In this document: in pieces, positions 31,341 to 47,304 of the stretch | How the letters are laid out: each line of letters starts with the position of its first letter | How positions within the stretch are numbered: position 1 is the first letter of the stretch | DNA from: Escherichia coli | GTDB taxonomy: Bacteria; Pseudomonadota; Gammaproteobacteria; Enterobacterales; Enterobacteriaceae | Strand: one strand, 5' to 3' | Assembly: GCF_044324785.1 (NCBI RefSeq) | Contig: NZ_CP172127.1 | DNA: 64,000 nt | Made by a program: the position numbers and the translations under genes | The notes under the pieces: generated by a model | Databases searched by the model: none | What the model saw: the letters and a program-made list of their open reading frames with translations, nothing else | What the model was told of the DNA's origin: nothing

Positions 31341-32210
31341 TCATCCCCTGAACACCTCCCGCCGGTGCCACGCCACAAACCCCTCCTGGGGATAGCATTC
31401 TTTCCCCATCGGCAAGGTAATCGGCTTACCATCAAAATCCCAGAACAACCTGCCAACGATGCCTCCGCCGTTCACCGCCGGCGAAACCTGGATGCGCATA
31501 TCCTCATCCAGACCAATGGATCCTTTATCAAAAGCCTTATGGTGAATCGCGCAGAGCGCCAGGCCGTTAGGGATTTCGCAGGGGCCGCCGTGCTGCTTCC
31601 ACTTGATATGGGCCGCTTCCAGGGCGACGGAGGTATTATCATGGCGCATATTGAAGCCGCAGATAGCGCACTCATAGTTATAGGCGCGCAGCACCTGCTG
31701 GCGAAAATGCGGGTCGCGCTCTTTGCGGATCTGCAGCAGATCAAACCCCATCTCTTCAGCCAGTTCTTCCTGAATACTCTCCGGAAAGTGCGCCTCGAGG
31801 ATCTGATGGGCGAGGGTATTGATCAGCTTCTTATTTCTGTTAAGTAACGCAAAATGCTGCTCATCAAAGCCGCCGGCGACGTGGCAGAGCTCCAGCTCTT
31901 TGCCGGGCGGCTGTCGGCTGCCCTGGGTTGAGCACTGTTCGCTGTTGTGTAGCTCCCAGAAGCCGTCGCCTTTCAGGCGCCAGAAGGGCATGTCCGGCCG
32001 GTACTGGCGGCGCTGCGGGCCAAAGCGTTCCAGCAGGCTATGCAGCTCATCACGTATCTCCGAGGCGTAGTCGAACATCCGCGCATGGCCGCGCTGGTAT
32101 TGCGAGAGGACGTACAGCAGCAATAGTGGTTTATGCGGCGCACGCTGTTCGCCTTTGCGCCAGATGGTGATGTTCTCGATCGCGTGTTGCAGGGTCGTGC
32201 TGGAGGGCAT
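31341..32210 (-). CDS. HNH endonuclease-domain protein, putative modification-dependent (type IV-like) restriction nuclease
   Basis: HNH core YECAICGFNMRHDNTSVALEAAHIKWKQHGGPCEIPNGLALCAIHHKAFDKG in the C-terminal half; N-terminal about 180 aa unassigned. Start taken at the second Met (MPSSTT…). Confidence 0.6.
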   Translation of the reverse strand: MPSSTTLQHAIENITIWRKGEQRAPHKPLLLLYVLSQYQRGHARMFDYASEIRDELHSLLERFGPQRRQYRPDMPFWRLKGDGFWELHNSEQCSTQGSRQPPGKELELCHVAGGFDEQHFALLNRNKKLINTLAHQILEAHFPESIQEELAEEMGFDLLQIRKERDPHFRQQVLRAYNYECAICGFNMRHDNTSVALEAAHIKWKQHGGPCEIPNGLALCAIHHKAFDKGSIGLDEDMRIQVSPAVNGGGIVGRLFWDFDGKPITLPMGKECYPQEGFVAWHRREVFRG

Positions 32211-32389
32211 AGCGTTACATTGGCAGCTAAATAAATGCGATGATGCTCGCAAAATCCTTGCCGATCAACCTACCAGATGCGGCGATTCTACGTGGATCGC
32301 GATTTAATTATCACTGCCAGTTATTTGTTCGAAAAGACCATAGCTTTCTATTTATACTCAAGCTTCGCGCCATCAGATAGCTATGTCTT

Positions 32390-33028
32390 ATGAAAAAACT
32401 ACCGGACCATTTATCCAGGGAATGCATCATCGCCGCCATTCGCGCTTACGATGCAGGCGTTGCGCATCAGTTTAAAAGCGCGCGTCTGTATGAGATCGAG
32501 TTTGAGGGGCGTCGGTATCCTTCAAAAGCCATCGTCGGGTTAGCGGCCACGCTTGCGACGGGAACGGAATTTACCCCGGCGGATTTCAGCGGGGGGATTA
32601 AATCAAAATGCGTGCGTCTGTTACTGGAGCAAGGATTTACGATCGCGTCGCAGGGCGCTGGCGATGACGAGGTTGCGCTTTTCCCCGATGAGGGGCAGAC
32701 GACCATGGAGTACGTGGAAGGGGCGGCGTTGCAGGTGGTGGTCAATCGCTATGAGCGCGACCGTCAGGCTCGTCAGGCGGCGCTTCGCCTGCATGGCTGC
32801 CAGTGTCAGGTATGCGGTCTGGATATGGCCAGCCGCTATGGCGATATCGGCCAGGGCTTTATCCATATCCACCATCTCATCCCGCTGGCCGGGATAAAGC
32901 AGGACTACCGCCTGAACCCTGAAACCGATCTGATCCCGGTATGTCCCAACTGCCATGCGATGCTGCACCGGCGAGATCCGCCGTTTACCCCCGAAGAGCT
33001 GAAGGCCCGGCTGCGCCCCACAGACTGA
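32390..33028 (+). CDS. McrA-like HNH endonuclease with a distinct N-terminal domain
   Basis: C-terminus CQCQVCGLDMASRYGDIGQGFIHIHHLIPLAGIKQDYRLNPETDLIPVCPNCHAMLHRRD parallels the E. coli McrA HNH motif (C.NCG…HHVIPLS…CPNCH..LH). Confidence 0.65.
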   Translation: MKKLPDHLSRECIIAAIRAYDAGVAHQFKSARLYEIEFEGRRYPSKAIVGLAATLATGTEFTPADFSGGIKSKCVRLLLEQGFTIASQGAGDDEVALFPDEGQTTMEYVEGAALQVVVNRYERDRQARQAALRLHGCQCQVCGLDMASRYGDIGQGFIHIHHLIPLAGIKQDYRLNPETDLIPVCPNCHAMLHRRDPPFTPEELKARLRPTD

Positions 33029-33072
33029 CATCCGACAGCGCTCGCTTTAATTACATCAAACACACCACAAAC

Positions 33073-33099
33073 CCCACGCTACCTTACCGGTAGCGTGGG
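33073..33099. terminator. Hairpin between convergent genes (HNH + / GH43 -)
   Basis: Perfect 11-bp stem CCCACGCTACC / GGTAGCGTGGG with TTACC loop; T-rich flanks are modest. Confidence 0.45.
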
Positions 33100-33110
33100 C
33101 CCACTCTCTT

Positions 33111-34790
33111 TTACTTATCCCGCGTCTCGCCAGCCTCCCAGCTGTAGCTGCCATCGGCCGCTAAGCTATCGCCCAGCTCCTGATACTCGAACTGATAAAA
33201 CTCAGCCTGGGTGCCGTACCCGGCGTAGTCTACCGCCGCCAGGCCGACGAACGCCCCGGTAAAGAACCCGCCGTAGCTCTGCAACACATAGTCATCGGAC
33301 AGCACCGCGGCATCCAGCTGGACCGGGATCTCGGTGAACGTCACGCCATCGAAGCTGTATTCATAGCTGTAGGTCTGCTTGCGGACTTTGGTCCGGAACC
33401 AGACGTATTCCACGCCGTCCGGCACCTTGATGGCGTTATCTTTCAGGTACGACGTGTATTTCCCGCGGTTATTTTCGCCGACTTCGATGACCTTGCCGTT
33501 AATTTCATTCCAGGTCAGGAAGACGAAGCTCCAGTGGCGGTCGTTATAGTAATTCGTTAACCCGGCCATCTGCTGGTAGCTGAAGGGCTCGAATTTCACC
33601 TTCACCGCGGCGTCAAAATAGAAGGCCTGCCAGCGGCGGGCAATCAGCGACAGATCATGCGTATTGGCTAACGAGCCCTGGCCGATTAAGGTTAATTTGC
33701 CGTTACCGGTGGTGCCCATTTTGGCCGTAAACGGCACCCGCAGGGTATTCCAGTTCGGGTCGAGGGCTGGCGACGTAAAGTCATCCTGCTGGCTATTATC
33801 GCTGGCGCTTTCGGTGAAGATGGCGTCTTTCGGTCCTTCGACGAAGGTTTTCCCGCCGTGACCGCCTTCAATACGCGGCCAGCCCTCGTCATCCCAGTAC
33901 ACTTTCTGGATCGCGGTTTCCCGGCCGAGGGTTGACCAGCCGCGCGGGTCGTAGATGGATTCCCCCGGGCGATTCCACGGCCGGGCGCAGAGCGAGGCGT
34001 AATACCATTCGCCTTCCGGGGTGGAGACCAGCGCGCCATGGCCCTGTTTCTGGATGTAGCTGTCCGGGGTGTCGACGTTGGTTAAGAACACGTCGCCCGG
34101 CTCGGTTTCAAAGCTGTCGGCCTCGAGGGTTTTCGACCGCGCCACCACCTCCTGGTGGGTAAACACGGTGCCGCCCTGGGCGGCAAACAGGTAGTAGTAG
34201 CCGTTCAGTTTATAGAGGTGCGGCCCCTCGACCAGCGCTACGGCGGTGCCGCGGTAGATGGTGCGCGCGGTTTCCGGCATTAACTTCAGCGTGTTGGTAT
34301 CCAGCTCCGTTAAGGTAATGCCATCGAAGGGGTGATGGTACTCCCGGTGATCCCAGGTTTGCTGGACGATATATTTCCGGCCATCGTCGTCATGGAACAG
34401 CGAGGCGTCAAACCCGACTCCGTTCAGCTTGATCGGGTCGCTCCACGGGCCCCGAATATCCTTCGCGGTGGTCAGGTAGTTGGTCATGTCTTTGAAGGCG
34501 CCTTCGGTGACCTTCACATCGGTATACACCAACCAGAATTGCCCGTCGGCCCAGGAGAGCGCCGGCGCCCAAATGCCGCCGGAGGAGGGGTTGCCCTTCA
34601 TGTCCAGCAGGGTGGTGGTGGAGAGCGGCGAAGGCAGCAGGTTCCAGTTTTTCAGGTCTTTCGACTCATGTAAACGCACGCCCGGAAACCACTCAAACGT
34701 CGAGTTGGCAATATAGTACGTATCCTCGACGCGAATAATACTGGGGTCGGCATTAAAGCCGCGTAATATCGGGTTTTGAATAAGTGACAT
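33111..34790 (-). CDS. xynB: Glycoside hydrolase family 43 beta-xylosidase / alpha-L-arabinofuranosidase
   Basis: 559 aa; N-terminal five-bladed propeller catalytic signature (…GFNADPSIIRVEDTYYIANSTFEWFPGVRLHESKDLKNW…) and C-terminal beta-sandwich typical of XynB-type enzymes. Confidence 0.8.
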   Translation of the reverse strand: MSLIQNPILRGFNADPSIIRVEDTYYIANSTFEWFPGVRLHESKDLKNWNLLPSPLSTTTLLDMKGNPSSGGIWAPALSWADGQFWLVYTDVKVTEGAFKDMTNYLTTAKDIRGPWSDPIKLNGVGFDASLFHDDDGRKYIVQQTWDHREYHHPFDGITLTELDTNTLKLMPETARTIYRGTAVALVEGPHLYKLNGYYYLFAAQGGTVFTHQEVVARSKTLEADSFETEPGDVFLTNVDTPDSYIQKQGHGALVSTPEGEWYYASLCARPWNRPGESIYDPRGWSTLGRETAIQKVYWDDEGWPRIEGGHGGKTFVEGPKDAIFTESASDNSQQDDFTSPALDPNWNTLRVPFTAKMGTTGNGKLTLIGQGSLANTHDLSLIARRWQAFYFDAAVKVKFEPFSYQQMAGLTNYYNDRHWSFVFLTWNEINGKVIEVGENNRGKYTSYLKDNAIKVPDGVEYVWFRTKVRKQTYSYEYSFDGVTFTEIPVQLDAAVLSDDYVLQSYGGFFTGAFVGLAAVDYAGYGTQAEFYQFEYQELGDSLAADGSYSWEAGETRDK

Positions 34791-34848
34791 TTCATTACAC
34801 CTTTTAAAATGGAAAGTGACGAATCGGTCTGATTTATAATTTTTTTAA

Positions 34849-36342
34849 CTACACGCGGATCTCATCCAGCTGACGGTTGATGTCGGTAACATGTTTATCG
34901 GAGATCGGATAAACCTGGATAATCACCATCGAAATAGCGGCCAGCGCGATCGGGATCCACACCGCGGTCATAATGATCCCGTCGATGGCGCTGGCGCTCT
35001 GCACGGCGCCGCTTTCATTAAAGCCATACACCGCCAGCAGCCACAGCGGGATCGCGCCGCCGATGGTGAAGCCGATCTTGAAGAAGAGTCCCATAATGGC
35101 ATTGATAATGGCGGCATTGCGTTTGCCAGATTTTAATTCGCCGTACGCGATGACTTCCGGTACCAGCGCCCACATAAAGCCGGTGGCGGAGGTTAAGCCC
35201 CACTGTTTAATAAAGGTGGCGATGTAGGCCAGCCACAGGGCGTCGTGCATCCCTTCGCGGGACCAGACGTAGGTCAGCAGTTCGCCGACGATAAACATGG
35301 CGAGGAACAGATGGAAGAAGCCTTTTTTACCAAAGATTTTTTTCAGTTTCGGCCAGAAAATCGGGAAGGCGATGCCGGGAATAGACGCGACGAGACCCAC
35401 CGCGCCCATCCATTCGGAGTGGCCGACGACGTACTGGTTGAAGAAGCCGTTAACAGTGTTCATGAAGAACATGAAGGTAAAGGCCAGCATAAAGAACATG
35501 CCCAGAATAACCAGCGGGCGGTTATGTCGGAGCTCGTGGAAAAGGTCGGTGGTTTTGACGTTGGCGGTCTGCTCGGCGGTCGCGACAACGCGTTCTTTGG
35601 TGAATTTATAACAGATAAACAGAGCCACCGCGCCGATGATCATATAGATGGCGTACACGCCAAACCAGGCGTAATTTGCCGACGGATCGGTATAATTCCC
35701 CAGATTCAGCTCAAGGCCAAAAAAGCCGGTGTCTTTCAGGCTGCGATCTTTCGGCGCCGCCATCTGCACAAACATCGGGAACAGGGTATAGACCAGCAGG
35801 TTGGCGCTGTTGGCCAGCATCATGCGGGTACTGGTCAGTTTATCGATCGATTCCGGGTCGCGGGTCAGCGACGCATTCAGCGAGCCATAGGGAATATTGA
35901 CTAAGGAATAAACCAGGTCCAGCGCCAGATAAATAATAAAGGCGAAAGCCACCGAACCTTTCACTCCGGGGATGGGCGCGAACAGTAATGCCGAGAGGAT
36001 CACCAGCGGCACGCCGGCTCGTAACAGCCACGGACGATATTTCCCTGCCTTCGAGGTTCGTTTATCCACGTAGGTGCCGACCATCGGATCCCAAAACACG
36101 TTAATTATGCGGACAAAAAGAAAAATAAAGCCTGCCGTTGCCGTGCTGATGGTATTTACCGTCAGCATATGCAAAGCCAGAAAACCCCCAATTGTGCCGA
36201 AAACCAGGTTTTGCGCAAAGTCGCCCATGCCATAACCAATTCGTTCTCCACGGGTTAATTTATGATATTCATCATGCCGACTGTGCATTATGTTTTTACT
36301 CATTCTAAGCAGACTCCGGTTTGTTTTGTGTAGGTGAAACAC
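34849..36342 (-). CDS. Glycoside-pentoside-hexuronide (GPH) family cation symporter, probable xyloside transporter
   Basis: Up to 497 aa (start uncertain); motif GERIGYGMGDFAQN and 12-TM profile; operon with the GH43 gene. Confidence 0.8.
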   Translation of the reverse strand: MFHLHKTNRSLLRMSKNIMHSRHDEYHKLTRGERIGYGMGDFAQNLVFGTIGGFLALHMLTVNTISTATAGFIFLFVRIINVFWDPMVGTYVDKRTSKAGKYRPWLLRAGVPLVILSALLFAPIPGVKGSVAFAFIIYLALDLVYSLVNIPYGSLNASLTRDPESIDKLTSTRMMLANSANLLVYTLFPMFVQMAAPKDRSLKDTGFFGLELNLGNYTDPSANYAWFGVYAIYMIIGAVALFICYKFTKERVVATAEQTANVKTTDLFHELRHNRPLVILGMFFMLAFTFMFFMNTVNGFFNQYVVGHSEWMGAVGLVASIPGIAFPIFWPKLKKIFGKKGFFHLFLAMFIVGELLTYVWSREGMHDALWLAYIATFIKQWGLTSATGFMWALVPEVIAYGELKSGKRNAAIINAIMGLFFKIGFTIGGAIPLWLLAVYGFNESGAVQSASAIDGIIMTAVWIPIALAAISMVIIQVYPISDKHVTDINRQLDEIRV

Positions 36343-36714
36343 TTTCTGACACAGTTGACATGGAAGAATCTATTACGTTTTTAAATTAAGTAATTATGTT
36401 TTTTTACTTCTGTGATCCTCGAAGCAAAGACCTGTATCACTTGCGTTGAGCCGCCATCCGCCGCTAATTTTTTGGCAGACAGGCAATGTGACAAAACCGG
36501 CATTTTAATTCGCTATGCCCACCTGAATTCCCCAGGAAGTGTACTCTATACGCGCGCGAAGCGAGATATTTAAAATAGTTTTATTTGCGAGATGGCTCAC
36601 ATTTGAGCATTTTCTCAATCGCTGAGTGAAATAACGTAATTGAGCAACCGACGATGAGAATACACGATGTGTCACAGTTGTTAATTTTCGGCTTCCTCAA
36701 TTTCGGAGTTCATC

Positions 36715-38034
<1,320 letters not shown>

Positions 38035-38364
38035 ATTTGGCTGACATGCCCCTGCGGGGGCATGTATTCCGCCGTGTGCCCGCTGCCGGGAAATAGCGTT
38101 TATTTGTTCGTGTTGTATTTATGCTGTCTGTGCCGAAAGGCTATCTGTTTGACTGTCTATAGAGGAACAATCCGCCGCGCGGATGGTTCTGCCATTGTGC
38201 CACCTTTTTAATATCAGTGAGGGAGGGCGAGTAGCGATAATTGTGTAATGCCTCTGTGACCGTACAAAATAAAAAATAACTTGTTCTGATGATAGCGACA
38301 TATTCTGTCAGCTCAGAATAGGCTGGTTATTGTCTGAATAAAATTAACCTATATTGAGAAACTC

Positions 38365-39747
38365 ATGACAATGATAAAAAAACTTCCATTAACCATGGCG
38401 GTTATCGCCGCGTTTTTTCCGCTTACCTCTGTAATGGCGCAAGAATTTACTCAGGAACAGATCGACGCCATCGTCGCCAAAGCCGTTGATAAAGCGCTGG
38501 CCGACCGCCAGGCGAAAATTGACGCCGCGGCCGACAAAAAGGTCGACGTCATTACCAACCCACAGACCACCGCCGCCTCGCCGGATATGGCCATTCCGTT
38601 CGGCCTCAAGTTCAGCGGCTATGCCCGCTATGGCGCCCATTTCCAGACCGGCGACCAGAAATATGTCGGCGTCGACGGCTCCTATAACGGCGCCTCGGCG
38701 ATCGGCCGTCTGGGCAACGAAAGCAACGGCGGCGAATTCCAGATCAGCAAAGCCTTCAAAAGCGCGCAGGGGGCTATCTGGGATCTCAACGTCATGTTCG
38801 ACCACTGGAGCGACGAGGTTAACCTGAAGAAGGCCTACGTCGGCGTCACCAACGTGCTGGAATCCAATCCCAACGCCTATATCTGGGCCGGCCGCGACTT
38901 CCACCAGCGTCCGCAACAGGGGATCAACGACTACTTCTGGATGAACCACGACGGCCAGGGCGCCGGGGTGAAGAACTTTGATATCGGCGGCGTGCAGTTC
39001 GACGTGGCGGCGGTGTCGCAGGTGAAATCCTGTAGCCCGGAAGTGATGGCCGACGAGACCAACCCGTCGCGTATCACCTGTACCGGCAGCTCCGACACCG
39101 GGGACAACGGCCACTACGCGCTGACCACCAAAACCCACAACATCAAGGCCGGGCCGATCGACGTCGAGGTGTACGCCAACTACGGCTTTGACTCGAAGGC
39201 GGTGGACAGCGACGCGCGTCTCGAAGCCTGGCAGGGCGGCCTGGTGCTGAGCCACACCAACGACAGCGGGGTGAACAAGGTGATCCTGCGCTACTCCGAT
39301 AACTCGGATAACAGCGTCTACAACAAAACCGACGACCTGACCACGGTCTACGCTAGCTTCGAGGGCAGCCATAAGTTCACCCAGCAGGCGCAGGTGGAAT
39401 ATCTGCTGGCCTTCCACGACTACGACAACGGCAAAGATAATACCGACAACCGCAAAAACTACGGTGCCATCGTGCGGCCGATGTACTTCTGGAACGACGT
39501 GCACTCCACCTGGCTGGAAGCGGGCTACCAGCGCGTGGACTACGACCAGGGCGGGGATAACCACGGCTGGAAGCTGACGCTGTCGCAGAACATCGCCATC
39601 GGCATGGGGCCGGAGTTCCGTCCGATGCTGCGCTTCTACGTGACCGGCGGTCAGGTGGACAACGAGCATACCGCTAAGGTCAACGGCACCAAAGACCAGC
39701 AGCTGGATTCGCTGAACGTCGGCGGGATGTTTGAGGCGTGGTTCTGA
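38365..39747 (+). CDS. Carbohydrate-selective outer-membrane porin (LamB/ScrY family) with N-terminal coiled-coil extension
   Basis: 460 aa; signal peptide, ScrY-like N-terminal helical extension, C-terminal aromatic end (…MFEAWF). Confidence 0.65.
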   Translation: MTMIKKLPLTMAVIAAFFPLTSVMAQEFTQEQIDAIVAKAVDKALADRQAKIDAAADKKVDVITNPQTTAASPDMAIPFGLKFSGYARYGAHFQTGDQKYVGVDGSYNGASAIGRLGNESNGGEFQISKAFKSAQGAIWDLNVMFDHWSDEVNLKKAYVGVTNVLESNPNAYIWAGRDFHQRPQQGINDYFWMNHDGQGAGVKNFDIGGVQFDVAAVSQVKSCSPEVMADETNPSRITCTGSSDTGDNGHYALTTKTHNIKAGPIDVEVYANYGFDSKAVDSDARLEAWQGGLVLSHTNDSGVNKVILRYSDNSDNSVYNKTDDLTTVYASFEGSHKFTQQAQVEYLLAFHDYDNGKDNTDNRKNYGAIVRPMYFWNDVHSTWLEAGYQRVDYDQGGDNHGWKLTLSQNIAIGMGPEFRPMLRFYVTGGQVDNEHTAKVNGTKDQQLDSLNVGGMFEAWF

Positions 39748-39819
39748 TGCGATAGCGTTGTCGAAGGAGCGTTCCCGGCTGGCGCTACGCTTAGCCGGGC
39801 TACGACTGGTGCGCTCCAT

Positions 39820-40045
39820 TTATGCCGGATGGCGGCATACATGCCTTATCCGGCCTACGTTTCTGAGGAGGCCTGCGGGATACCCCCCAGGCCCGGCAGG
39901 CGCAGCGCCGCCGGGCAGGACACTTCAAGCTCCATACCTGTGGTTGTGCCGGATGGCGGCATAAATGCCTTATCCGGCCTACGTTCCTGAGGAGGCCTGC
40001 GGGATCCCCTCCCAGGCCCGCGCAAGCGCAGCGCCGCCGGGCAGC
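39820..40045. repeat. Two tandem copies of a REP-type palindromic unit (about 95 bp each)
   Basis: …tgccggatggcggcata(c/a)atgccttatccggcctacg…gaggaggcctgcggga…caggcccg…gcgccgccgggcag appears twice (about 39823 and about 39948). Confidence 0.6.
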
Positions 40046-40059
40046 TGGCCCAGGTTCCC

Positions 40060-41019
40060 TCAGTTCACCGTCAGGCGCAGGGCAAGATCCTGCGGGTAGG
40101 GGTCAAAATAGTTCTGCGCCTGCAGGTAGCGATCCGGATACTCGGCCAGATAGTGCTTAAGCAGCGTCAGCGGCGCGAGGATCGGCAGCAGCCCGGCGCG
40201 ATAGTTGAGGATCACCTCCCGCAGCTCGCCGCGCTGGCGGCTGTTCAGCTGGTCGCGGAAATAACCCTGAATATGCATCAGCACGTTGGTGTGGTTTTTC
40301 CGAGAGGCGGGCCGCTTGAGGATCGCCATCAGCTTTTCGCGATAGACCTCGAAGAAAGCCTCCAGATCCTCCCATTCATGCAGCGAGGCGACGAAGGGGC
40401 CGATCTCGCGGTAGCCCGCCTGGTGGTGAGCCAGCAGCTGCAGCTTGTAGCGGCTGTGAAAGGCCAGCAGGCCGTGGCGGGTCAGGCCGCGGGCGCGCAG
40501 GGCGTTGAGTTCATGCAGGGCGAAGACGCGCTCGACAAAATTCTCCCGCAGCAGCGGATCGTGCAGCCGGCCATCCTCTTCCACCGGAAGCCACGGGTAG
40601 CGCGCCATCAGGGCGCCGGTAAACAGCCCCACGCCTTCCTTACGCCCGCGATTGCCTTTTTCATCATACAGCCGCACGCGCTCCATCCCGCAGATCGGCG
40701 ATTTGGCGCAGACGATAAAGCCCGACAGCTCGCCCAGGGTTGCCAGATGGGCGTTGGCGAAATCGGCCATCTTCTCCGTCACATCCTCGTGCGGGGCGTG
40801 GCTGAAGCGCATGCGGATCTCCCCGACCGGGGTCTGCACCAGCCGGAGCGCCGGGCGGGGAACGGGCAGGCCGATCGCCATCTCCGGGCAGACGGGCTTA
40901 AACGCCACCCACTGCGCGAGCTCATCCATCACAAAGCCCATACGCTTATGCCCGCCGTCGAATCGCACGGCTGAGCCGGTTAAACATCCGCTGATCCCAA
41001 TGACAGGTTGCGTGTTCAT
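40060..41019 (-). CDS. YbgA-family protein (DUF523 plus DUF1722)
   Basis: 319 aa; N-terminus MNTQPVIGISGCLTGSAVRFDGGHK… is typical of the family. Confidence 0.65.
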   Translation of the reverse strand: MNTQPVIGISGCLTGSAVRFDGGHKRMGFVMDELAQWVAFKPVCPEMAIGLPVPRPALRLVQTPVGEIRMRFSHAPHEDVTEKMADFANAHLATLGELSGFIVCAKSPICGMERVRLYDEKGNRGRKEGVGLFTGALMARYPWLPVEEDGRLHDPLLRENFVERVFALHELNALRARGLTRHGLLAFHSRYKLQLLAHHQAGYREIGPFVASLHEWEDLEAFFEVYREKLMAILKRPASRKNHTNVLMHIQGYFRDQLNSRQRGELREVILNYRAGLLPILAPLTLLKHYLAEYPDRYLQAQNYFDPYPQDLALRLTVN

Positions 41020-41567
41020 GGCGCTGTCCTCTCTTCTGCTGTGGTTCGGGTAAAGAAAAGGGTCACGGTGGCCACCGTAATGCCGAATTTCTTCATCTCG
41101 GTTTTGTTAAACAAATGGCTGCCGTCCTGCAGGAACATCCAGTCGTCAAAGTGCAGCAGCCACCGGCTGCCGCTGGCCTCGACGTTCATGCTGTAGCGCC
41201 AGTGAAAGGCATTGCCTGCCGCCTGGCCGCTGGCCACGCCTTCGATATCCCCGGCGGTGCCCTGATAATGGTTATCGCCGGTGCGGCGAATGCGCCACAC
41301 CCGCTGCTGTTTCTCGCCATCGTCATAGACAAAGCGCTCATGGAGCGTCAGGGTGTCGCCGACGACGTCGCCATCGATCGCTACATGGAAGCGGCGCAGC
41401 TGTTTACCGCGGCGATCCTGCACCATCCCCCACGCCTCGGTTCGACCCTGAAAATAGTGGAAGATGTCGAGGGCGGGCTGCTGCTGCCGGTACTCGGTGA
41501 CCTCGATGCTGCAGCCGGCGAGCATCAGCATCAGCAGCGCCAGGCCACGGGTCAGAATGCGTTTCAT
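41016..41567 (-). CDS. Putative lipoprotein (DUF3833-like)
   Basis: 183 aa; lipobox LAGCS after signal peptide; translationally coupled to the YbgA-family gene. Confidence 0.5.
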   Translation of the reverse strand: MKRILTRGLALLMLMLAGCSIEVTEYRQQQPALDIFHYFQGRTEAWGMVQDRRGKQLRRFHVAIDGDVVGDTLTLHERFVYDDGEKQQRVWRIRRTGDNHYQGTAGDIEGVASGQAAGNAFHWRYSMNVEASGSRWLLHFDDWMFLQDGSHLFNKTEMKKFGITVATVTLFFTRTTAEERTAP

Positions 41568-41606
41568 GGTGTACCTCCGATCAACTGCTGACGCAGTTCG
41601 GGATAA

Positions 41607-43691
41607 GTGGTGCGCGGATCGAGCCAGAACTCGCTGACGCTGAGCGCAGGAGATGTGACCAACAGCGGCCGGATTCAGGGGCAGAACATTACTCTGGATG
41701 CCAGCAGCCTGACCAGCAGCGGTGCTGTTCAGAGTGCGCTGGAGTTGGCTCTGACCCTGAGTGGCGATGTTATTGCTGCCACCGGCAGAAAAATTACCGC
41801 CCTGGGCGATGCCCGCCTTACCGGGAAAGTGCTGGGTAACCAGGGATTAATCAGCGCGAAGACGCTGGAAGTGAATGGTGATTCGCTCAGCAACGGTGGC
41901 GAAATCAGTGGTGTTAACAGCCTGAATGTGACACTCAGTGGTAATCTGCAACAGCACGGTAAAATGCTGACAGGCGGTACATTAAACGTCAACGCCAGAG
42001 ACATCAGCAATAGTGGGCAGCTTCAGGGGGCGGATAACCGAATCACCGCCAGTTCGCTGACCAACTCAGGTCGTGTGCAGGGCGACAGCGGGCTGACTCT
42101 TACATTGCTGAATGCCCTGACCAACCAGACCAGCGGTGTGCTTCTCAGTCAGAACGTATCAGCGCTTTCTGCACCTGTGCTGACTAATGACGGCACCATT
42201 CAGGGCAACGGTAAAACCACGCTCAGCGCGGCAACGCAGGCCCACAACAGTGGCAAGATTCTTTCCGGCGGTGAGCTGACGTTCACCACGCCGGACTACA
42301 GTGGCAGTGGCTGGCTACAGGCCACTGACCTGCTGCTGAACGTGGCGAAGCTTGCCGGTAATGGCACTGTGATGGCGGCGAATCAGGCAACGCTCACAGG
42401 TAACAGTCTGACCAACCGTGGCCTGTTCCAGGCTGCACAACTGAACGTCAACACGCAGACCATCACCAACAGCGGCACGCTGCTGGGTAATCAGGGCCTG
42501 ACAATAAAAGGGAACAGCCTGAACAACGCCGGCGGGAAGGTGTTCAGCGGCGGTGATATGCTTGCTGAAATGGTCTCGCTCAGCGGCGCGGGCCAGCTGG
42601 TTACACTCGGTAACCTGACGCTGAAGCTCACACGTGGTTTGACCGCACAGGGCGTTATCGCCGCGAATAAACAACTCTCCGTCAGCAGCCAGGGTGATAT
42701 TACCAATGGCGCCACATTGCAGGGCAACGGTATCACGCTGAATGCTGCAGGCAGGCTGACCAACAATGGCCAGTTGACCGCCGGCAACGGCACCACGGCA
42801 CTGAGCGGCAGCGGGATTGCGATGAATGCCAGCGGCAGCCTGCAGGCAGGCGGGGACGTCAGCCTGACCAGCAGGGGAGATATCACTCTCGACGGTTTTA
42901 CCGGCACGACGGGTAGTCTGGTGTTAACGGTCGCCGGGGCAGTCATTAACACCGCACTGTTGTATGCGGGCAATAACCTCTCGCTGTTTGCCAGCACCAT
43001 CCGGAACCATCACGGCGATATGCTGGCGGGTTACAGCCTGGTGATGCAGAAAGATGTCAGTGGTGCCGCGAATGCTGAAGTGATTAATACCTCCGGGAAT
43101 ATCGAAACCACCCGCGGTGATATCACCATCAGAACCGGACATTTACTGAATCAGCGGGAGGGTATAAATGAGACAAAATCATACATTCCGGTTGAGAATG
43201 TCGCAGTACCTGATGGTGTAAATTCTGTTTCAGTCAGAGTGGGCGATTTAGGTGAAAATGGATGGGGATATTATGTGAAGTCCTGGAGCGGTACTGCCGG
43301 TGGTGGTTTTGAGGCATGGGCCGTTCCGACTGAAAAGGGAGCCACCCGGAAATTTCTGACTGGCACAACACGCGTCGATGTTGGTGCAACAGGGGGGGAT
43401 GCCAGAATTTCGGCCGGTAATAATCTGCTGATTGACGCGAACAAACTGGATAATACGGGAAGTCATCTTCTTGCCAGCGAGTTTGTCAGCCTGTCGGGTT
43501 CACAACTGAATAATCAGTCCTTCTTTGGCTATACACAGGATGAATACAATGTGTATCGCTATTACGGCAAACTGGCCATGATCCCCAACGACGGGCATCT
43601 GCAGTATGGAGATGCTTCTGCCGATGATCGCGTTACCTTTACTCTCTCCGGAGCTCCGGAATATGTCACCAGAGACACCGGTCAGGCGTAA
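41607..43691 (+). pseudogene. Internal fragment of a CdiA/FhaB-family two-partner-secretion exoprotein (beta-helical repeat region only)
   Basis: 694-aa frame with no credible start or TPS domain; repetitive motifs (…LTNSGRVQGDSGLTL…, …ITNSGTLLGNQGLTI…); the stop codon is contributed by the adjacent IS66-family end. Confidence 0.7.
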
Positions 43692-43758
43692 GCGTACAGC
43701 CTGAACCGTCTGGTCAGAATCTGACGAATTAGACAAAGTGGTGTCCACCAAATAAGTA

Positions 43759-44160
43759 GTGGGAACCAAAGTGTCAGATATGCAGAAAAATGTGACTCCC
43801 GGCAGGCGAAAAGGCTGCCCTAATTATCCTCCCGAATTTAAACAGCAGCTCGTTGCTGCCTCCTGTGAACCCGGGATATCCATCTCAAAACTTGCTCTTG
43901 AAAATGGCATTAACGCCAATCTGTTGTTCAAATGGCGACAACAATGGCGCGAGGGAAAGCTGCTATTACCTTCTTCAGAGAGCCCCCAGCTACTTCCTGT
44001 GACTCTCGATGCAGCTGCCGAACAGCCAGAATCGCTCGCAGAGGGCCCGGAAACCCTCAGTATCAGCTGTGAGGTAACGTTCCGGCACGGGACGCTCCGC
44101 TTCAATGGCAATGTCAGCGAAAAGCTCCTGACTCTGCTGATACAGGAACTGAAGCGATGA
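43759..44160 (+). CDS. IS66-family accessory protein TnpA (orfA)
   Basis: 133 aa; first of three overlapping IS66-type ORFs. Confidence 0.8.
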   Translation: MGTKVSDMQKNVTPGRRKGCPNYPPEFKQQLVAASCEPGISISKLALENGINANLLFKWRQQWREGKLLLPSSESPQLLPVTLDAAAEQPESLAEGPETLSISCEVTFRHGTLRFNGNVSEKLLTLLIQELKR

Positions 44161-44504
44161 TCCCGTTACCTTCCGGGACCAAAATTTGGCTGGTTGCCGG
44201 TATTACCGATATGAGAAATGGCTTCAACGGCCTGGCTGCGAAAGTACAGACGGCGCTGAAAGACGATCCCATGTCCGGCCATGTTTTCATTTTCCGGGGC
44301 CGCAGCGGCAGTCAGGTTAAACTGCTGTGGTCCACCGGTGACGGACTGTGCCTCCTGACCAAACGGCTGGAGCGTGGGCGCTTCGCCTGGCCGTCAGCCC
44401 GTGATGGCAAAGTGTTCCTTACACAGGCGCAGCTGGCGATGCTGCTGGAAGGTATCGACTGGCGACAGCCTAAGCGGCTGCTGACCTCCCTGACCATGCT
44501 GTAA
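44157..44504 (+). CDS. IS66-family TnpB (orfB)
   Basis: 115 aa; [28 protein letters not shown]… typical TnpB; 4-bp overlap with orfA. Confidence 0.85.
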
Positions 44505-44553
44505 ATCTCTTTATCCTGGTTGTCACAGAATAAGCCCGGTAAAATACGGGCTT

Positions 44554-46092
44554 ATGAACGACATCTCTTCTGACGACATCTTCCTGCTGAAACAGCGCCT
44601 GGCCGAACAGGAAGCGCTGATCCACGCCCTGCAGGAAAAGCTGAGCAACCGGGAGCGCGAAATAGACCATCTGCAGGCGCAGCTGGATAAACTCCGCCGG
44701 ATGAACTTCGGCAGTCGTTCCGAAAAAGTCTCCCGCCGTATCGCACACATGGAAGCCGATCTGAACCGGCTTCAGAAAGAGAGCGATACGCTGACTGGTA
44801 GGGTGTATGACCCGGCAGTACAGCGTCCGTTGCGTCAGACCCGCATCCGTAAGCCGTTCCCTGAATCACTACCCCGTGACGAAAAGCGACTGTTGCCTGC
44901 GGCGCCGTGCTGCCCGAACTGCGGCGGTTCACTGAGCTATCTGGGTGAGGATACCGCCGAACAGCTGGAGTTGATGCGTAGCGCCTTCCGGGTTATCCGG
45001 ACGGTACGGGAAAAACATGCCTGTACTCAGTGCGATGCCATCGTGCAGGCACCTGCACCTTCGCGGCCCATCGAGCGGGGTATCGCCGGACCGGAGCTGC
45101 TGGCCCGCGTGCTGACCTCGAAGTATGCAGAGCACACCCCGCTGTATCGCCAGTCAGAAATATACGGCCGGCAAGGTGTGGAGCTGAGCCGTTCACTGCT
45201 GTCGGGCTGGGTGGATGCATGCTGCCGGCTGCTGTCTCCGCTGGAAGAGGCGCTTCATGGCTATGTCATGACTGACGGCAAACTCCATGCCGATGATACC
45301 CCGGTCCAGGTACTGCTGCCGGGTAATAAGAAGACGAAGACCGGGCGGTTGTGGGCGTATGTTCGTGATGACCGCAATGCCGGGTCAGCGTTGGCACCTG
45401 CAGTGTGGTTCGCTTACAGCCCGGACAGAAAAGGCATCCATCCGCAGACTCATCTTGCTTGCTTCAGCGGTGTGCTGCAAGCGGATGCGTACGCCGGGTT
45501 CAACGAGCTGTATCGCAATGGTGGGATAACGGAAGCTGCCTGCTGGGCTCATGCCCGCCGAAAGATCCACGATGTGCACGTCCGCATCCCGTCAGCACTG
45601 ACGGAAGAAGCCCTGGAGCAGATCGGTCAGTTGTACGCCATAGAGGCGGATATAAGGGGAATGCCGGCAGAGCAGCGGCTTGCTGAACGTCAGCGAAAAA
45701 CGAAACCGCTGTTGAAATCCCTGGAAAGCTGGTTGCGTGAAAAGATGAAGACCCTGTCGCGACACTCAGAGTTGGCGAAGGCGTTCGCGTACGCACTTAA
45801 CCAGTGGCCGGCACTGACGTACTATGCGAACGATGGCTGGGTGGAAATCGACAACAACATCGCTGAAAATGCCCTGCGGGCGGTAAGTCTGGGTCGTAAA
45901 AACTTCCTGTTCTTCGGCTCTGGCCATGGTGGTGAGCGGGGAGCGCTACTGTACAGCCTGATAGGGACGTGCAAACTGAATGACGTGGATCCAGAAAGCT
46001 ACCTTCGCCATGTGCTTGGCGTCATAGCAGACTGGCCGGTCAACCGGGTCAGCGAACTGCTTCCGTGGCGCATAGCACTGCCAGCTGAATAA
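44554..46092 (+). CDS. IS66-family transposase (orfC)
   Basis: 512 aa; N-terminal leucine-zipper-like region, CxxC…CxxC zinc motif (CPNCGG…CTQCD) and DDE core. Confidence 0.9.
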
Positions 46093-46129
46093 CACATCCC
46101 CGTCAATACGGCCCTCGCTGTACGCTTAC

Positions 46130-46892
46130 TAATCCGCCGTGAATATAAATCAACAACGAGTGCGAGATAACACCATTTGTCCTGCAGGCGAATAAAACTG
46201 ATGTTGCCGCACCAGACGCGGTTTGGTGCGGCGGGGTGAAATTGCCGGTTCAGTAAATTTGGCAATGGCGGACTTTTGTCTTCGTTTACCCGGTAGTGAT
46301 GTTTAACTGGCTGTCGACTTGTCAGCCCGCATTCCCGCATCAGTCGTCGTGCCAGCCACCGGCCTGCATCAACGCCACTATGGCGCAACATCTGACTGAT
46401 TGCCCGGCTACCGACTGCGCCACGACTGAGAGCATGGACAGCCCTCACCCGACTTCGTAATTCAATTCTTTGCACATTAACAGGACGCTTCACCTGCGCG
46501 TAATAAATGCTACGGTGAATACCGAATAAATGACAAAGAACCCGCACTGGCCACTTTGCTTTCAGCCGTGTGATTAGCGCGACAGTTTCCCCGGGGATTT
46601 CGCTCATCAGCACGGCAGCCTGCTTTAGTATTTCTTTTTCCATCTCAGGGCGCTTTATCTGCGCTTTAAGCTGCTTAATTTAGCGTTGTTCAGGAGTAAT
46701 AGCATTACCAGCGGGCTCAATACCCTGAAGTTCCTGCTTATACAACTGTATCCATTTACGCAAATGGTCAGGGTTGAGCTCGAGTGCCAGCGCGACTTCT
46801 CTGACATCACGCTGGTATTTAACCACCTGTTCGATAGCTTCAAGCTTGAACTCCGGGGAAAAGGTACGTTTAGTCCGACGAGTTTTGATCAT
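46130..46892 (-). pseudogene. IS3-family element remnant: orfA (46680..46892) plus 5' portion of orfB (46130..46643), truncated by the IS66-family insertion
   Basis: The orfB frame runs into the IS66 terminal repeat, where the track ORF 45999..46643 finds its stop. Confidence 0.7.
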
Positions 46893-47031
46893 GCATCACC
46901 TCATTTTCACTTTTTAACATTAACAGTGAAAATGAGGTGTCCTGAATTACCGATCCACTACACAGAGAGTGACCAAAGGATAACGTGTCCTGAGTTTCCC
47001 TATTATAGAGAACTGTTCAGGGAGTCTGACA

Positions 47032-47304
47032 TCAAGAGTGCAGTAGCCTTTTTAATATTTCATTCTCCATTTCAATGCGTTGTAGCTTTTTCCTCAGCTC
47101 ACGTATTTCGATTTGTTCTGGTGTCATCGGAGAGGCTTTTAGTGTTTTGCCCTGACGCTCATCACGCAGTTGTTTGACCCATCTTGTCATTGTGGAAAGG
47201 CCGATATCCATAGCTTTGGCGGCATCTGCCACCGTATAGTTCTGGTCAACAACCAGTTGGGCGGATTAGCGTTTAAACTCTGCGCTAAAATTTCTTTTTT
47301 TCAT
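47032..47304 (-). pseudogene. IS911 orfA remnant carrying a nonsense codon
   Basis: Minus strand reads [32 protein letters not shown]…; TAA replaces the expected GAA at codon 13; the run of A before G is one A shorter than the A6G frameshift motif; IS911-like terminus at about 47376. Confidence 0.7.

Follow-up and report, generated by a model that had tools for sequence, protein, structure and literature searches.

We found that the 694-codon open reading frame in a 64,000-nucleotide stretch of Escherichia coli DNA (hereafter the window) is, with high confidence, an inactive internal remnant of a cdiA gene of class III, the Tsx-receptor type, and that it owes its present form to two separate events. 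At 100% identity, the window matches the chromosome of E. coli ES1 (NZ_CP133856.1) as well as a second record, which carries the name strain ST38. In the ES1 annotation, PGAP lists the same stretch as a pseudogene without either terminus; the fragment is hence already known as a pseudogene from public genome annotation, and we are dealing with the ordinary decay of a known gene family. It is a routine case of a decaying polymorphic-toxin locus, in which the two inactivating events can be ordered via a surviving intermediate, and as such it matters little. The practical consequence is that this 694-codon ORF should be kept out of annotations and counts of adhesins and CDI toxins.

Results and Discussion

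The coordinates of the fragment and of its direct neighbours are collected in Table 1.

Table 1. The cdiA remnant, its two junctions and the adjoining elements (positions in the window).
Feature	Position	Strand	Basis and remarks
DUF3833 lipoprotein gene	41016..41567	-	Pfam PF12915, E 1.6e-64; lipobox LAGC; unrelated left neighbour
3'-terminal remnant of a 174-aa gene (last ~20 codons and stop)	41564..41628	-	homology to L014, L015 and L016; PGAP partial CDS
Uninterrupted frame, 694 codons and stop, GTG start	41607..43691	+	ORF listing; translation without internal stop
8-bp microhomology GAGCCAGA	41621..41628		common to cdiA codons 876-879 and the antisense of the truncated 174-aa gene
cdiA-derived DNA	41629..43687	+	codons ~877-1565 of class III CdiA; blastp to WP_001680718.1
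ISEc8 (IS66 family), 2442 bp	43688..46129	+	tnpA, tnpB, transposase; PGAP name; end sequences
Degenerate IS3-family transposase fragments	46130..47300	-	PGAP pseudogenes; in place of the remaining cdiA and cdiI

The frame is open from its GTG to its stop, just as the first-pass annotation, made from the letters alone, had described it. That annotation also held that a start and a TPS secretion domain are missing, and re-checking the upstream sequence led to the same result: an in-frame TAA at 41604-41606 stands immediately 5' of the GTG, so that the frame cannot be extended upstream. Pfam recognizes a sole domain in the 694 codons, PF05594 (Fil_haemagg, E 1.8e-11), and a PDB sequence search with the fragment gave no match at E <= 0.01. 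The homology to cdiA is demonstrated at the nucleotide and at the protein level. By megablast, hundreds of E. coli records have a gene annotated as cdiA that matches positions 41606-43687 with ~98% identity, far more than chance would give. Alignment to full-length CdiA, which had been proposed as a check, places fragment residues 6-694 on residues 877-1565 of the 3236-aa protein WP_001680718.1, with 97.7% identity and without a gap (blastp). The earlier view of the frame as the relic of a larger locus destroyed by rearrangement agrees with both the intact cdiB-cdiA-cdiI locus of N1 and the intermediate found in CP034843.1, which are discussed below.

CdiA's receptor-binding region is located between FHA-1 and FHA-2 (Ala1345-Trp1668 in CdiA-EC536), and Tsx is the receptor of the class III CdiA effectors (PMC5371414). 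We estimated the limits of the receptor-binding domain (RBD) by mapping the EC536 Ala1345 and Trp1668 primer motifs onto the N1 protein, where QKD/A is found at 1352-1355 and Y/PLPSGN at 1659-1660, giving an RBD of about 1355-1659. On this scale the FHA-1 repeats of the fragment, which correspond to the distal half of the repeat region (CdiA residues 877-~1354), reach about 43061-43070. The DNA from there to 43687 encodes the first ~211 of the ~305 RBD residues and is non-repetitive. A self-similarity scan with 100-residue windows gave 6-16 significant matches for each of them up to fragment residue ~450, and none or one match past residue ~500, with the repeats ending at CdiA residue ~1355. 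FHA-1 haemagglutinin repeats are thus present across fragment residues 1-~450, as seen from PF05594 and the off-diagonal repeat matches. The statement that the frame consists only of beta-helical repeats did not hold, since ~30% of the fragment is non-repetitive RBD and the self-similarity stops at ~450-500. The RBD itself is incomplete: residues ~1355-1565 of ~1355-1659 are kept, and ISEc8 interrupts the domain at 69% of its length.

The best-matching protein, WP_001680718.1, appears in Table S3 of PMC5371414 (Ruhe et al. 2017) among the predicted class III CdiA proteins, with Endonuclease_NS_2 as its toxin. The RBD sequence of the fragment is of the STECO31/Tsx type (97.7% identity to WP_001680718.1), which places it in the class III lineage by descent. 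With class III CdiA, whose prototype is CdiA-STECO31, the fragment shares the distal half of FHA-1 and the first ~211 RBD residues, and the polymorphism D1438E (Table S3, PMC5371414) is present in the region that it covers. In contrast to a complete class III CdiA, it has no signal peptide, no TPS domain and no FHA-1 up to residue 876, and it is without the last third of the RBD, YP, FHA-2, pretoxin-VENN and the CT toxin; cdiB and cdiI are absent as well. FhaB and other filamentous haemagglutinin-type TpsA adhesins have the PF05594 haemagglutinin-repeat beta-helix in common with the fragment. The fragment, however, is near-identical to E. coli CdiA instead, and its non-repeat part is the class III RBD of CdiA.

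The absence of the partner genes was demonstrated by tblastn. CdiB, full CdiA and CdiI of N1 found nothing in the 64-kb window beyond the fragment. CdiA residues 1-876 gave repeat-level matches to the fragment only and revealed no signal peptide or TPS domain in the window, while residues 1566-3236, which cover FHA-2, pretoxin-VENN and the toxin, gave no match in it. A linked cdiB or cdiI is found neither by tblastn in the window nor in the annotation. The lack of cdiB, of a C-terminal toxin and of an immunity gene had been noticed at first reading, together with the suggestion to search the genome for orphan modules. For this search we used a query made of a carrier-specific anchor, 701 bp of the cdiB 3' end/cdiA 5' end and 701 bp from just upstream of VENN. 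At megablast sensitivity and among the best 14 records, the two 701-bp probes matched no second place on the ES1 chromosome or on four other carrier chromosomes; the ES1 plasmids are separate records. With these two probes, the carrier chromosome gave no sign of further CDI sequence. Because both ends of the gene are lost, the window does not represent an "orphan cdiA-CT/cdiI" module either.

The 5' junction, GGATCGAGCCAGAACTCGCTG, was set by three-way alignments of the window with the intact Klebsiella-like operon (L015, L016, L017) and with N1 cdiA. The window matches the Klebsiella-like operon up to 41628 and cdiA from 41621 on. The two matches overlap at the 8-bp microhomology GAGCCAGA, which identifies the junction as an illegitimate join. 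Positions 41621-41628 can be assigned to cdiA or to the neighbouring gene; we give the start of the cdiA-derived DNA as about 41621-41629. The megablast limit of 41606 was rejected, because in the three-way alignment the similarity of 41606-41620 to cdiA is due to chance and these bases belong to the truncated gene. The GTG and the first five codons (GTG GTG CGC GGA TCG) come from the opposite strand of the 174-aa gene's last codons and not from cdiA; the non-cdiA part of the frame amounts to its first 14-22 nt.

In the intact operon the 174-aa gene precedes DUF3833, and here its 3' end remains. E. coli LH50-c (L017) and a contig labelled Klebsiella (L015) both show this gene order within a longer operon. 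The claim that the fragment abuts an unrelated lipoprotein gene was therefore right in that the DUF3833 gene adjoins, but 40-60 bp of a further gene remnant lie in between. To the left of DUF3833 we found ybgA, a LamB-type porin gene, a second xylA (xylA2), an MFS transporter gene and a gene for a GH43 hydrolase, all within a Klebsiella-like segment at 33000-41628, in which ybgA and DUF3833 have lost the genes that precede them in the native operon. Two tandem copies of a ~100-bp REP/BIME-like palindromic element (GCCGGATGGCGGCAT..ATGCCTTATCCGGCCTAC) occupy 39823-40044, in the intergenic stretch that separates the porin gene from ybgA. The porin-ybgA-DUF3833 block is also found beside lacZY on ~300-kb E. 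coli plasmids.

In plasmid p027_SK3a an IS903-like end interrupts this segment just 3 bp past the ES1 junction, so that the junction may have arisen when an IS flanked by short repeats was lost. Judged from the junction sequence, the 5' event could have been either a simple deletion or such a loss of an intervening IS. A third truncation point of the 174-aa gene was seen on a metagenome contig (ERZ1745016 NODE_1503; L014, 1-640), ~20 bp past the ES1 junction, where the gene joins sequence without a match in the E. coli collection. Taken together, the truncation points in ES1, p027_SK3a and this contig are three independent breakpoints within ~20 bp.

At the 3' junction, the identity to cdiA stops at 43687 (...GGTCAGGC), and the left inverted repeat of ISEc8, GTAAGCGTACAGC, begins with the next base; its 13 bases recur in inverted form at the right end, which finishes at 46129. 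The element carries the gene set tnpA-tnpB-tnpC (PF01527, PF05717, PF03050) on ~2.4 kb between GTAAGCG terminal inverted repeats. The stop codon of the fragment, TAA at 43689-43691, consists of bases 2-4 of the left inverted repeat, exactly as expected from the earlier remark that an IS66-family terminal repeat supplies it. An 8-bp target-site duplication is absent at ISEc8, as the flanks GGTCAGGC on the left and TAATCCGC on the right differ. This argues against a simple insertion and for a deletion or a recombination that affected the right end afterwards. An inversion between ISEc8 copies was considered in addition. Its reciprocal product was searched for with a chimeric query composed of the ISEc8 right end, the putative 8-bp duplication and downstream cdiA, and no contiguous match to this junction was obtained in 5,426 complete E. 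coli genomes, ES1 included. The inversion is thus unsupported, and a 3' deletion is favoured over it. The right end of this ISEc8 is variable in other records: L007, L011 and L013 (GF60), at 3402-3438, hold 37 extra bp (AACTCAGCATCAGCGGTTAATGAGAGGGCTGAACCGA) right after the element (window 46130) that are missing in ES1, and in strain I2 (L008) the match to the window extends only to about 45880, since the right-hand part of ISEc8 differs. These insertions and the I2 variant point to repeated small rearrangements at the right end of this ISEc8.

CP034843.1 (L012) demonstrates which of the two events came first. In this record the 5' junction is identical and ISEc8 is missing. The cdiA sequence there goes on for 7.5 kb, 98.9% identical to N1, across the region for the Endonuclease_NS_2 C-terminal toxin as well as a YezG-type cdiI, and IS1 comes next; two frameshifts already split the gene into three ORFs. 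Because CP034843.1 shares the junction and is free of ISEc8, the 5' truncation preceded the ISEc8 insertion and the deletion. We infer the deletion mechanisms from the junctions as follows. A complete cdiB-cdiA-cdiI locus would once have been located in a tRNA-associated genomic island, in this case the one between setC and selC. An illegitimate event, either a deletion or a replacement, would then have fused cdiA codon ~877 at GAGCCAGA to the antisense 3' end of the 174-aa gene; lost with it were cdiB and, from cdiA, the parts for the signal peptide and the TPS domain and everything else up to codon ~876. ISEc8 would have inserted later, after codon 1565 and within the RBD, and an IS-associated deletion would finally have taken away the remaining cdiA, the nuclease toxin and cdiI.

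Other cdi pseudogenes of E. coli islands, in ZYB39 and CP034843.1, are like the fragment in that IS elements or deletions truncated them in tRNA-associated islands. ZYB39 has a 5'-truncated, frameshifted cdiA beside IS66 fragments. In contrast to both, the fragment in the window lost its two ends, the toxin/immunity module included. ZYB39 (matches H6 and H7), which at first seemed to have ISEc8 at the same site of cdiA, was tried as a progenitor and rejected, because there the IS66 fragment is located upstream of the 5'-truncated cdiA, which is another arrangement.

The nearest full-length cdiA is that of N1 (L002, 9388-19098; 3236 aa), which encodes WP_001680718.1, with cdiB before it and a YezG-family immunity gene after it. 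It is part of an island at a tRNA-Phe gene, in which the tRNA is followed by an integrase, a phosphoethanolamine transferase, an outer-membrane protein, other genes, cdiI-cdiA-cdiB and an HTH/hypothetical backbone. The modules of the window keep the relative order and the orientation of N1: with 88-89% identity to their N1 counterparts, the HTH/hypothetical genes occupy 26.5-28.4 kb, and on the other side the outer-membrane protein and phosphoethanolamine transferase genes (51.3-53.7 kb) are followed by the integrase (55.5-56.7 kb) and the tRNA (57.0 kb). This match in order and orientation supports decay in place, in which a Klebsiella-like segment and ISs would have replaced cdiB and the cdiA 5' end. 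One may alternatively think of the fragment as a passenger of an IS-mediated transposition or of a composite transposon, brought here from elsewhere, in which case it would be no witness to an earlier CDI locus at this site. Such a passenger would fit with ISEc8 directly flanking the fragment in the absence of a target-site duplication, and with the mobility of the Klebsiella-like segment itself, which also occurs, bounded by IS903-like elements, on plasmids of ~300 kb. However, only one side of the fragment has an IS, and the fragment has the orientation and the relative position of the intact cdiA in the N1 island, with backbone modules common to N1 on both sides (26.5-28.4 kb and 51-57 kb). 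CP034843.1, moreover, retains the whole 3' end and cdiI at the same junction. We consequently regard the passenger scenario as very improbable and favour decay in place.

The comparison with CP034843.1 additionally revealed a change of divergence inside the relic. While the flank differs at 8/8,606 positions, the relic differs at 54/2,066, and these differences are distributed unevenly, with 1 in the 448 bp before ~42070 and 53 in the 1,618 bp after it (Fisher p = 3.6e-5). This jump indicates a homologous-recombination breakpoint in the relic at about 41980-42070 (7500-7600 in L012). Among the changes specific to CP034843.1 are G-to-V and D-to-T, five residues apart, which match the G1462V/D1467T allele listed in Table S3 (PMC5371414). 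The domains of CdiA are modular and actively recombined (PMC5371414), and the breakpoint fits this picture. It is conceivable, although we consider it rather doubtful, that the relic acts as a recombination arm, by which the truncation allele and the Klebsiella-like segment spread among lineages or by which FHA-1/RBD sequence is exchanged with intact class III cdiA. If true, such relics would add to the reshuffling of receptor-binding domains and to island mosaicism. The breakpoint, the only mildly interesting point of this relic, accords with the modular way in which cdiA is known to recombine and leaves the pseudogene verdict unchanged.

The whole arrangement is carried by 5 of 5,426 complete E. 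coli genomes. The frame is open over its full 2 kb in the window, and it is open too in all seven of the other carrier loci examined, with 0-5 nt differences and no stops. Since the carriers are only so few nucleotides apart, the open frame reflects recency and not selection. Synonymous and nonsynonymous counts are uninformative here, since allelic polymorphism accounts for most of the differences from N1 and CP034843.1, and only 0-5 nt separate the eight carrier copies from one another. No ribosome-binding site is recognizable ahead of the GTG, and promoter-like matches around the frame occur at chance level only. We infer that the frame is not expressed. A product, if made, could not be exported, because it would have no signal peptide, no TPS domain and no CdiB partner, and with the lost domains it could neither bind Tsx with a complete domain nor deliver a toxin.

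That the frame is intact in 8/8 carriers examined might nevertheless be taken as a sign of an exapted gene, coding for a cytoplasmic or otherwise exported beta-helix/partial-RBD protein, or of a maintained recombination cassette from which intact cdiA genes receive FHA-1/RBD sequence. The sharp change of divergence, showing that relic DNA took part in homologous recombination, would point the same way. The same signal is, however, equally well explained by horizontal spread of the junction with the cdiA homology as crossover arm, and on the ES1 chromosome the two 701-bp cdi probes match nowhere else, so that no close relative is evident there. Exaptation would have to start from a frame without signal peptide, TPS domain or CdiB. 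Its start and first five codons come by chance from antisense sequence without a recognizable ribosome-binding site, its RBD breaks off at 69% of the full length, and an IS end happens to provide its stop; the longer version in CP034843.1 is already frameshifted. We hence give next to no credence to a functional role of either kind. A non-functional pseudogene fragment is the best-supported reading of the 694-codon frame, as judged from its sequence.

The island around the fragment is a ~41-kb mosaic at about 15.3-57.1 kb (15300-57104), between setC and the selC tRNA-Sec gene (57010-57104, minus strand), which the integrase (55526-56710) adjoins. Besides the phosphoethanolamine transferase and outer-membrane protein genes, it contains CP4-like genes, a YeeU/CbtA toxin-antitoxin pair, antirestriction genes, several IS fragments and PhoX. 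A gene annotated as a ScoMcrA-like, phosphorothioated-DNA-binding restriction endonuclease and an adjacent HNH endonuclease gene were found at 31341-33028. In four other E. coli genomes the same endonuclease is linked directly to a truncated DUF3833 gene, which represents another rearrangement variant. Finally, the core side of the window (1-10900) holds a large inverse-autotransporter adhesin gene, iatC, which is cut by the window start, and eilA, coding for a HilA-family regulator, together with type III secretion translocon, tip and chaperone genes of the YopB/SseC, IpaD/SipD and SycD families.
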